Shown piece after piece: positions 46,580 through 47,191 of a stretch of 64,000 bases of DNA. Made by a program: the position numbers and the translations under genes. The notes under the pieces are model-generated. The model did no database searches, was not told the DNA's origin, and saw only the letters and a list, made by a program, of their open reading frames with translations. The first letter of the stretch is position 1, and each line of letters begins with the position of its first letter. The DNA is from Escherichia phage KM01, in sequence record PV018827. One strand, 5' to 3'.

Positions 46580-47191
46580 TTAGTAAGACACGTCACCACT
46601 TGAATGGGACATGTTGCTCTTGACGAAGTAGCAATACTTGCCAAGACCTTCATTAATTTCTTGAAGCATACTCTGATCGACAGGGTAGGTGGCTAAATCA
46701 CCATCAAACTCATCCATCTTCTCAATAATACACATCAAGGTCATGCACATATCAGAGAGCATACCGTCCATGCCTAGATCAGCATTACCCTCTGAGAACC
46801 AAGAATGAGAGAGGTAGTTAGCTGCTGTAGCATCCACTTTAACACAGTGGTAACGCATACGTTCAGCAATACGATCTCCTACCTGTCGTGCGTAATCTTC
46901 CAGCTCATCAAACATACCATGAACACCCTGAAATCCTGCACCAGAGACGTTCCAGTGGTAGTTTTTAGCTTTGATATGCAAGAGTTCCATGTTAGCTTGT
47001 AAGCAGCTCAGGATGTGTTCTAGGCTGTTTCCACTAATCATACCTTGCATCGTTTCAAGGCGAGAGATTGATAGGTCGGACCGGTCTAACATACTATAGC
47101 TGTCACGACCAATCTCAGGTAAATCAAAGACATTCTTATGCATTTGGGTTTTCTCCATCAAGTTCAACTGAGTTAGCAACGTTACGTGCAA
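46580..47191 (-). CDS. Dps-like ferritin-fold protein
   Basis: Dps signature KNYHWNVSGAGFQGVHGMFDELEDYARQVGDRIAER; true start uncertain. Confidence 0.55.
   Translation of the reverse strand: MHVTLLTQLNLMEKTQMHKNVFDLPEIGRDSYSMLDRSDLSISRLETMQGMISGNSLEHILSCLQANMELLHIKAKNYHWNVSGAGFQGVHGMFDELEDYARQVGDRIAERMRYHCVKVDATAANYLSHSWFSEGNADLGMDGMLSDMCMTLMCIIEKMDEFDGDLATYPVDQSMLQEINEGLGKYCYFVKSNMSHSSGDVSY

Follow-up and report, generated by a model that had tools for sequence, protein, structure and literature searches.

The region analysed here is a window of 64,000 nucleotides from Escherichia phage KM01 (PV018827), which contains at positions 46580..47191 a minus-strand open reading frame whose longest mechanical reading comprises 203 aa from a TTG codon. 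A first-pass annotation of this stretch had described a Dps signature in the frame, and this signature, HWNVSGAGFQGVHGMFDELEDYARQVGDRIAER, was found exactly in the translation; the strand, which had been left unstated, is the minus strand. The true start of the gene is likely the ATG at 47143-47141, which is preferred because of its ribosome-binding site, the N-termini of the homologues, the published annotations and the mass of the resulting product. The Shine-Dalgarno sequence was read directly from the DNA, and the ATG itself overlaps the stop codon of the upstream gene (ATGCATAA). An alignment of 16 Kuravirus-like homologues shows the common N-terminus MH(K/N)NVFDLP, the equivalent start is annotated in phiEco32, SU7 and EcM-vB1, and the computed mass of the 187-aa product equals the 21.2 kDa reported for SU10 CDS67. 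On the same four grounds, the TTG at 47191 and an in-frame ATG at 47158 were both rejected as start codons. The N-terminal extension of about 40 aa that had also been noted is a fair description of the 187-aa form, in which helix A starts at residue 41. An overview of the features of the locus is given in Table 1.

Table 1. Features at and around the Dps-like gene of phage KM01 (positions within the 64,000-nt window).
Feature	Position	Strand	Description
Phage-sigma promoter element AAATGTATA	47505..47513	-	~40 nt upstream of the ATG of the partner gene; match to tAATGTAtA
Upstream partner gene, phi32_68 homologue	47136..47465	-	109 aa, pI 8.8; stop overlaps the Dps start; phrog_10984
Shine-Dalgarno sequence GGAG	47153..47156	-	9 nt upstream of ATG 47143; within the 3' end of the upstream gene
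Dps-like mini-ferritin CDS	46580..47143	-	187 aa, 21.2 kDa, pI 4.77; orthologue of phiEco32 phi32_67/SU10 CDS67
N-terminal extension, residues 1-40	47024..47143	-	Present in Kuravirus-like and some distant metagenomic homologues; variable
Dps ferroxidase segment HWNVSGAGFQGVHGMFDELEDYARQVGDRIAER, residues 63-95	46859..46957	-	Predicted ligands H63, H75, D79, D90 and E94, plus W64
Stem-loop	46544..46572	-	8 nt past the Dps stop; 11-bp stem with 7 G-C pairs and a 7-nt loop; AACTTATTTAT follows
Thioredoxin	46055..46330	-	Pfam PF00085, 9.6e-13
ThyX, flavin-dependent thymidylate synthase	45383..46039	-	Pfam PF02511, 1.8e-43

The thioredoxin and ThyX-like genes, already named as neighbours in the first-pass annotation, were both confirmed by Pfam, and a 59-aa open reading frame lies between the Dps-like gene and thioredoxin. 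Genes for dCTP deaminase (DCD) and PhoH are found further out, on either side of the Dps/thioredoxin/ThyX genes. All genes around the Dps-like gene are located on the minus strand, in the middle nucleotide-metabolism and replication cluster (PhoH, ligase-like, ThyX, thioredoxin, DCD). The linkage of Dps with thioredoxin, ThyX and dCTP deaminase is kept in Kuravirus, SU7-like phages, 7-11, Privateer and metagenomic relatives. Thioredoxin adjoins either the Dps gene or the phi32_68 homologue in Privateer, 7-11 and L008, its neighbour in 7-11 being the phi32_68 homologue, and in 7-11 ThyX is positioned directly upstream of Dps.

The window belongs to a podophage of E. coli of the genus Kuravirus (phiEco32-like). 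The 2-kb stretch around the Dps-like gene is 98-99% identical to many Kuravirus phages including EK5, YF01, SkaterBoy_Bas90 and SGF2, and a protein search adds phiEco32 and SU10 to the Kuravirus relatives. Kuraviruses are prolate podophages of the C3 morphotype with genomes of ~77 kb. In a tblastn search, a Dps homologue was found in 175 of the 50,697 phage records, most of which are prolate podophages of Escherichia, Shigella, Salmonella, Cronobacter, Proteus and Aeromonas; the rest are mainly Streptomyces phages, and phages of Synechococcus and Listeria account for a small number of records. Judged from these records, the gene is rare among phages overall but characteristic of the prolate C3 podophages. 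A recent capture from the host was rejected, as the similarity to E. coli Dps is marginal (phmmer E ~0.14) and the GC content is phage-like (43.4% in the gene vs 42.5% in the phage).

In the Pfam search, Ferritin (PF00210) was the sole match at E <= 1 and scored 30.9 bits as opposed to a gathering cut-off of 24.5, with the single sequence matching over helices A and B only. The phmmer matches in the PDB were nearly all Dps proteins, and all of them were Dps down to E 0.5, with MsDps2 and Dlp-2 as the best matches (E ~5e-9). Within the PHROGs, the protein belongs to phrog_3636 (E 2e-54). A profile built from the 16 homologues retrieved 3,361 Dps cluster representatives at E <= 1e-3, and the matches listed span profile positions ~40-177, which correspond to helices A to D. 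The AlphaFold2 monomer model has a mean pLDDT of 79.7, with most of the core at 79-96, and its helices (41-65, 72-98, a short BC helix at 107-112, 125-150 and 154-176) follow the Dps topology with the BC helix in the long crossover loop. In a Foldseek comparison with the crystal structures of Dlp-2, MrgA, S. aureus Dps and MsDps, the model reached target TM scores of 0.84-0.91 at an rmsd of 1.2-1.6 A. The agreement of Pfam, PDB, profile and fold matches fully supports the assignment of the protein as a Dps-type mini-ferritin with a predicted Dps fold, and the earlier description of a ferritin-fold protein of the Dps type, encoded in a phage cluster for replication and nucleotide metabolism, can be maintained. 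The NCBIfam equivalog model for the E. coli-type Dps (NF006975) gave 34.5 bits over residues 52-96 only and did not reach its cut-off of 114, which points to a diverged phage subfamily (phrog_3636) and not to an equivalog.

In the GenBank records of EK5, DE5, IME267, ES17, YW01 and others, this gene is labelled as an integrase. This label was rejected, as no similarity to integrases or recombinases was found, Ferritin is the only Pfam match, and the neighbours in sequence and in structure are all Dps proteins. Likewise, P0032 (1,156 aa, 20 "matches") was discarded as a Dps repeat protein, since these matches are a low-complexity artefact.

The residues of the ferroxidase centre were assigned by comparison with E. 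coli Dps, in which we take H51, H63, D67, D78 and E82 to correspond to H63, H75, D79, D90 and E94 of the phage protein. Together with W64, they show the canonical spacing (0, +1, +12, +16, +27 and +31 for H63, W64, H75, D79, D90 and E94), and all six are invariant in the alignment of the 16 Kuravirus-like homologues. In a wider alignment extending to ~25-40% identity, which includes 7-11, Privateer and metagenomic proteins, H63, W64, H75, D90 and E94 remain invariant, and D79 is at least 90% conserved, with a Glu in one sequence. A loss of ferroxidase residues on alignment had been named beforehand as the finding that would speak against a Dps-like role; instead, the ligands are kept, D79 being nearly invariant, and at the level of its residues the iron-oxidising site is intact. 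The gene is under purifying selection: in the comparison with the SU7 orthologue, to which all of the following figures refer, dN is 0.12 and omega ~0.05 for the whole protein, and dN is 0.072 and omega ~0.035 for the core, the omega values being approximate because dS (~2.5) is saturated. Two peculiarities of the sequence were also noticed. Helix C is rich in Met and Cys (DMCMTLMC; 15 Met + 5 Cys), which is unusual for Dps, and residue 124 is G in KM01 and D in all other homologues.

Compared with Dlp-2, the N-terminal extension is ~35 aa long; compared with MsDps2, it is ~15 aa long. It contains the conserved motif S-[ILM]-x-R-[LM]-[ED]-x-M, in which R28 is invariant among the Kuravirus-like set and which also occurs in more distant metagenomic homologues. 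In the AlphaFold2 model the extension has a pLDDT of 44-60, and a helix at 18-37 is predicted at low confidence. It is also the fastest-evolving part of the protein (dN 0.374 vs 0.072 in the core, compared with SU7), and the Dps proteins of 7-11 (146 aa) and Privateer (154 aa) are too short to contain most of it.

DNA-binding Dps proteins rely on basic tails or basic surfaces, and members of the family that lack such tails, among them Listeria Dps and Dlp-1/2, show no DNA binding. The charge computed on the 187-aa sequence is net -14 per subunit, with a net charge of -2 in the extension (one Lys, three Arg, four Asp, two Glu) and -1 in the C-tail, and a Lys/Arg-rich N- or C-terminal tail as in the DNA-binding subset is absent. 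For comparison, the N-tail of E. coli Dps presumably carries a charge of +3. The low pI is shared by all Kuravirus-like homologues (4.6-5.0). The non-specific DNA binding that the first-pass annotation had taken over from Dps proteins in general can therefore not be assumed for this one, and the label "DNA-binding protein" is unsupported by the sequence. Without basic tails, any protection by this protein would more likely be chemical than a matter of coating the DNA.

The Dps-like gene is preceded by a homologue of phi32_68. Homologues of this partner gene with 36-37% identity are Privateer gp069, which is located directly upstream of Dps, and 7-11 gp078. The partner is co-conserved with Dps in prolate podophages, and the overlapping pair was also found in L008 and L010. 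Its AlphaFold2 model shows a small SH3/Tudor/KOW-like barrel between helices, with a best confidence of 74 and values of 46-62 for the other four models, and a Foldseek search with this model gave no match at E <= 1e-3. The predicted fold is consistent with a generic small barrel and with no narrower assignment; a FeoA-like identity was considered and rejected, as it found no support and no Pfam match.

Upstream of the partner gene lies the element AAATGTATA, which matches the single-element promoter consensus of the phage sigma factor phi32_gp36, tAATGTAtA. Sites of the form WAATGTATA occur six times in the 64-kb window, compared to 1.45 expected, and in phiEco32, six genes follow gp36-dependent promoters that have been mapped experimentally, gene 68 being one of them (PMC8948821). 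SU7 and Bas89, with Dps proteins ~82% identical to that of KM01, share an invariant block of 35 nt around AAATGTATA, and all Kuravirus-like loci compared carry the motif in the corresponding position, down to relatives with 48-53% identity. A scan for sigma-70 promoters gave 15 sites as opposed to a shuffled expectation of 17.3 and thus no excess. The sigma-70 site at 47548-47521 was not relied on, because such sites do not exceed the shuffled count and the phage-sigma element is better supported.

Downstream of the Dps-like gene, a terminator scan and folding identified a hairpin at 46544..46572 with a dG of -15.5 kcal/mol and a z-score of -2.7, whose stem is invariant and whose loop is variable in SU7 and Bas89. 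At the same place, L008 and L010 carry hairpins of unrelated sequence followed by a T-run (z -4.2 and -4.8). By its sequence, the KM01 hairpin may be terminator-like or an mRNA-stabilising 3' hairpin, and its weak T-tract suggests partial termination or stabilisation of the mRNA. In metagenomic relatives with Dps proteins 53% and 48% identical to that of KM01, the arrangement is the same: TAATGTATA precedes the partner gene, the two cistrons overlap, and a hairpin with a T-run follows. Since promoter element, overlapping cistrons and hairpin are kept in divergent relatives, the sequence supports a separate unit of two genes (promoter element, phi32_68 homologue, Dps, hairpin) in which the Dps-like gene comes second. 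The location in a "replication operon" proposed previously consequently needs to be qualified: the gene does lie within the replication and nucleotide-metabolism cluster, but it appears to belong to a two-gene unit of its own with a phage-sigma element and a hairpin.

The gene itself is not new; it is the long-annotated gp67 of the phiEco32-like coliphages (Kuravirus). The phiEco32 record describes phi32_67 as "DNA binding protein; member of the Dps family". In the SU10 paper (2014), CDS67 was reported to have a DPS domain and was placed in the middle gene class, CDS65, 67 and 68 were present in all five C3 phages sequenced at that time, and mass spectrometry detected CDS67 through 6 peptides (35.8% coverage), more peptides than for any other middle-gene product. 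The Privateer paper (2021) described a Dps homologue in CsCl-purified virions and noted the homologues in Kuravirus. A role in oxidative stress or iron metabolism has already been proposed for phage Dps genes, namely those of Lactobacillus and gut phages (PMC8008677, PMC6669764). The suggestion of the first-pass annotation that the protein protects DNA or changes the iron or redox state matches this published speculation and is plausible. In the literature searched, no experimental test of phi32_67 or of any other phage Dps, either biochemical or genetic, was found.

In our view, the protein is probably a dodecameric mini-ferritin that is produced from middle times, oxidises Fe2+ with H2O2 and stores the Fe3+, resulting in less Fenton damage. 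The basis of this model is the gene with its start, the predicted Dps fold, the catalytic residues, the selection, the anatomy of the unit and the conservation in prolate podophages as described above; others have demonstrated the production of the protein (SU10 mass spectrometry) and the gp36-dependent promoter upstream of phiEco32 gene 68. Expression would take place in the middle phase from the gp36-type promoter, with Dps as the second cistron after the phi32_68 homologue and the hairpin at the end of the unit. By analogy with bacterial Dps, 12 subunits would assemble into a hollow cage of 23 symmetry with two ferroxidase sites at each two-fold interface, H63, H75 and D79 being contributed by helices A and B of one subunit and D90 and E94 by helix B of the other. 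Fe2+ would be oxidised at these sites, preferably with H2O2, and Fe3+ would be laid down inside the cage, so that both Fenton reagents would be removed while the phage DNA replicates at a high rate. The protection would be chemical and would not involve coating of the DNA. Assembly of the dodecamer, ferroxidase activity and a physiological benefit are what the likeness to bacterial Dps leads us to expect.

Some observations count against this model, namely the NCBIfam score of 34.5 as opposed to 114 bits, the Pfam match restricted to helices A and B, and the odd helix C. Against a purely cytoplasmic protein stands the Privateer homologue in twice CsCl-purified virions, which hints at another location. 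As to the physiological rationale, a common proposal is that the protein replaces the OxyR/Dps response of the host that is silenced by gp79, and this may apply to Kuraviruses. However, 7-11 has no gp79 and does not shut off host transcription, yet it keeps the Dps gene, so this replacement cannot be general or the whole rationale.

Other readings of the protein have to be weighed against the mini-ferritin model. It is unlikely, in our estimate, that the protein is a component or passenger of the virion, on or in the prolate capsid, where it would protect the packaged DNA or be delivered with the genome. In its favour, no more than ten phage proteins were detected in Privateer particles purified through a CsCl step gradient and an equilibrium gradient, and Dps is one of them; CDS67 was likewise identified in a preparation of SU10. 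In addition, prolate C3 podophages, for which the gene is characteristic, make up most of the 175 records, and some fold matches in BFVD are Dps domains that form part of larger proteins labelled "prohead protease". However, the SU10 proteomics was carried out on material purified no further than by PEG precipitation, in which DNA polymerase, the sigma factor and early proteins were present as well, and in the cryo-EM study of SU10, gp20-24 are the ejection proteins and Dps is absent from the text and the supplementary files. The supplementary files of Privateer contain no mass-spectrometry table, and a cage that is loaded with iron or bound to DNA may plausibly band at the same density as the phage in CsCl. 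In addition, the gene sits in the middle, non-structural cluster. The Dps cage measures ~9 nm and would be too large for the tail channel. As the Privateer Dps lacks the N-terminal extension, the latter is no shared packaging signal. We regard as quite improbable the further idea that the SH3-like phi32_68 homologue and the acidic Dps cage form a lineage-defining two-gene module whose cage is associated with the virion or the packaged genome. If true, a capsid-borne mini-ferritin would shield the phage DNA from iron-driven radicals outside the cell or on entering it, in parallel to the encapsulin-ferritin systems.

A true DNA-binding or DNA-compacting protein, which would organise or coat the DNA of the replicating phage or the nucleoid of the host, perhaps in concert with the basic SH3-like partner, would fit the family name, the presence of the DNA-binding MsDps2 and MsDps1 among the nearest solved relatives, and the position of the N-terminal extension, which occupies the place of the DNA-binding tails in other Dps proteins. 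The co-transcribed partner with its pI of 8.8 and its small barrel of the Tudor/KOW/PWWP kind, a type that often binds nucleic acids, points in the same direction. This reading is nevertheless improbable, given the strongly negative subunit, an extension with a single Lys that evolves fastest and is missing from the short proteins of 7-11 and Privateer, the non-significant fold matches of the partner, and the tail-less Dps proteins that do without DNA binding. The intact ferroxidase site would also suit a store or donor of iron or another metal, which would feed iron-dependent enzymes during infection, or a manipulator of host iron regulation that would derepress the Fur regulon by lowering free Fe2+, in place of an antioxidant. 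In relatives, a class III ribonucleotide reductase gene (NrdD) is located a few genes downstream, an NrdD-like fragment directly follows the Privateer Dps, and helix C, with its many Met and Cys residues, might serve as a binding site for soft metals. On the other hand, no NrdD was found near the Dps-like gene in the window, its place being taken by PhoH, the ligase-like gene, ThyX, thioredoxin and DCD, and nothing links the gene to a specific client enzyme. Dps proteins are also generally poor iron donors compared with ferritins, and a role in iron supply or iron regulation seems decidedly unlikely to us.

As an annotation, the present assignment is of little importance, as the gene has carried a Dps-family label since the publication of the phiEco32 genome and the proposed role repeats published speculation. 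Its residual value lies in the correction of annotations and in the description of a conserved, easily testable phage Dps. The integrase label is wrong and could lead to therapy candidates being taken for temperate phages although they are strictly lytic, and the label "DNA-binding protein" is misleading given the charge pattern. Few accessory genes are kept throughout the prolate-podophage lineage; Dps is one of them, and this conservation, together with its own promoter element and hairpin, suggests that it is probably important to the phage. As Kuraviruses can be propagated on engineered E. coli K-12 with restored O-antigen (BASEL Bas86-94), a clean knockout and the accompanying biochemistry are now straightforward.

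Compared with known systems, phiEco32 phi32_67 and SU10 CDS67 represent the same gene, the KM01 protein being 98.9% and 95.7% identical to them, respectively. The phiEco32 gene has the same 187-aa frame, the same start and the same neighbours (phi32_68, 66, 65 as thioredoxin and 64 as ThyX), and its product differs from that of KM01 at two residues, including G124 in KM01. Dps-like genes near DNA-metabolism genes are also present in Lactobacillus plantarum myophages, in "Gratiaviridae" and other gut phages, in Streptomyces phages and in cyanophage S-SRM01. These share 28-30% identity or only the fold with the KM01 protein and belong to other lineages and hosts, with no partner gene or promoter layout known to be shared. 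Encapsulin shells have the HK97 fold and contain ferritin-like cargo, and their likeness to a virion-associated Dps is an analogy only; neither a targeting peptide nor a location in the structural module nor a density in the SU10 virion map speaks for it.

Among the cellular proteins, E. coli Dps belongs to the same family and has the same ligand spacing, with a phmmer E of ~0.14 and 21% identity in the structural alignment, but its basic tail of the K5/K8/K10 type is absent from the phage protein. MsDps2 of M. smegmatis (2z90, 4m35) is the best match in sequence and in Foldseek (E 4e-9, target TM 0.79-0.80), aligned through helix D. MsDps2 binds DNA through its N-terminal tail, whereas the extension of the phage protein is acidic and unrelated in sequence. 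The tail-less bacterial Dps proteins, such as Dlp-2 of B. anthracis (1jig) and the Dps of Listeria innocua, differ from the phage protein by its 35-aa N-terminal extension with a motif of its own, its short C-tail and its Met/Cys-rich helix C; moreover, the phage protein is encoded in a lytic phage under a phage-sigma promoter and is described here from its sequence and a model. With these tail-less proteins the phage Dps shares the predicted four-helix bundle, the BC helix and the five ligands with the Trp, as well as an acidic character and the lack of a Lys-rich tail, and Dlp-2 superimposes on the KM01 model with an rmsd of 1.2 A over 137 columns at 26% identity.

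The Dps gene, which encodes the predicted Dps-type mini-ferritin, is labelled 'integrase' in several GenBank Kuravirus records, among them EK5, DE5, IME267, ES17, YW01, CHD5UKE1 and 172-1. An integrase identity was ruled out, as similarity to integrases is absent, and the label could wrongly mark these lytic phages as temperate. The gene is translationally coupled to the partner gene directly upstream, a phi32_68 homologue, and the two are co-conserved throughout the prolate podophages. For the partner protein, modelling predicts a small SH3/Tudor/KOW-like barrel between flanking helices; a fold search with this model returned no significant matches. 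The coordinates of these and the neighbouring features are compiled in the table.

Features of the Dps neighbourhood and gp36-type promoter sites in the window
Feature	Position	Strand	Remark
Trx-Dps interval	46331-46579		indel hot-spot
ORF in this interval	46339-46518		59 aa, hydrophobic
Dps gene	46580-47143	-	labelled 'integrase' in several records
Dps helix C	46694-46768	-	residues 126-150, Met/Cys-rich, GMLSDMCMTLMCIIEKM
Dps residue 124	46772-46774	-	Gly, in ADLGMDG
Partner gene	47136-47465	-	109 aa, pI 8.8
phi32_69-71 homologues	47538-48153	-	three small basic ORFs in tandem; 69, 69, 65 aa; pI 9.8-10.6
dCTP deaminase and large nucleotidyltransferase	48154-50067	-	close upstream; nucleotidyltransferase with weak PolyA_pol head domain
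WAATGTATA site	8946-8954	+	gp36 consensus match
WAATGTATA site	25522-25530	+	gp36 consensus match
WAATGTATA site	36244-36252	-	gp36 consensus match
WAATGTATA site	36316-36324	+	gp36 consensus match
WAATGTATA site	42968-42976	-	gp36 consensus match
WAATGTATA site	47505-47513	-	gp36 consensus match

Further upstream, the three tandem ORFs gave no match in the Pfam search and are only 23-28% identical to one another, but each has the motif TR..AR..K and ends in a KV.YY or KVHY sequence; they look like diverged paralogues. They are followed by the dCTP deaminase and nucleotidyltransferase genes, which may underlie an unidentified DNA modification, suggested as the reason why these phages resist restriction so strongly (BASEL-II paper). 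WAATGTATA, which fits the promoter consensus of the phage sigma factor gp36, occurs six times in the window as opposed to 1.45 expected occurrences, and two of the sites, at 36244 and 36316, form a divergent pair with a spacing of about 70 nt that probably lies where the middle and late clusters meet.

On the downstream side, the interval between thioredoxin (Trx) and Dps contains a single ORF in the window and is about 375 bases longer in relatives such as EcM-vB1, MN03 and phiEc_1, where it encodes two further small ORFs. Relatives carry a gene for an anaerobic, glycyl-radical ribonucleotide reductase of class III (NrdD) a few genes downstream of Dps-Trx-ThyX, as in L008 (6812-8564) and L010 (6570-8129), and in Privateer an NrdD-like fragment of 98 aa (L003, 4398-4694) directly follows Dps; the window has no such gene close to Dps. 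Dps-fold domains also occur within larger proteins (333-763 aa) of uncultured Caudovirales in BFVD, which are named 'prohead protease' in UniProt (A0A6J7XDU5, A0A6J7WPK9, A0A6J7WIS1); there is a hint here that the domain is tied to head assembly in some phages.

Within the Dps protein itself, the Gly at residue 124 is a strain-specific substitution in the loop joining the BC-helix to helix C, as Gly is found here in none of the 15 aligned homologues, nor in phiEco32; they have Asp or a different residue. The Met and Cys content of helix C is unusually high; in the alignments, this enrichment is greatest in the Kuravirus-like clade, and M128 is kept without exception, distant homologues included. 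Does this helix serve in metal binding or as a ROS sink? Dps from E. coli contains four Met and no Cys, compared to which the phage protein is richer, with 15 Met and 5 Cys.
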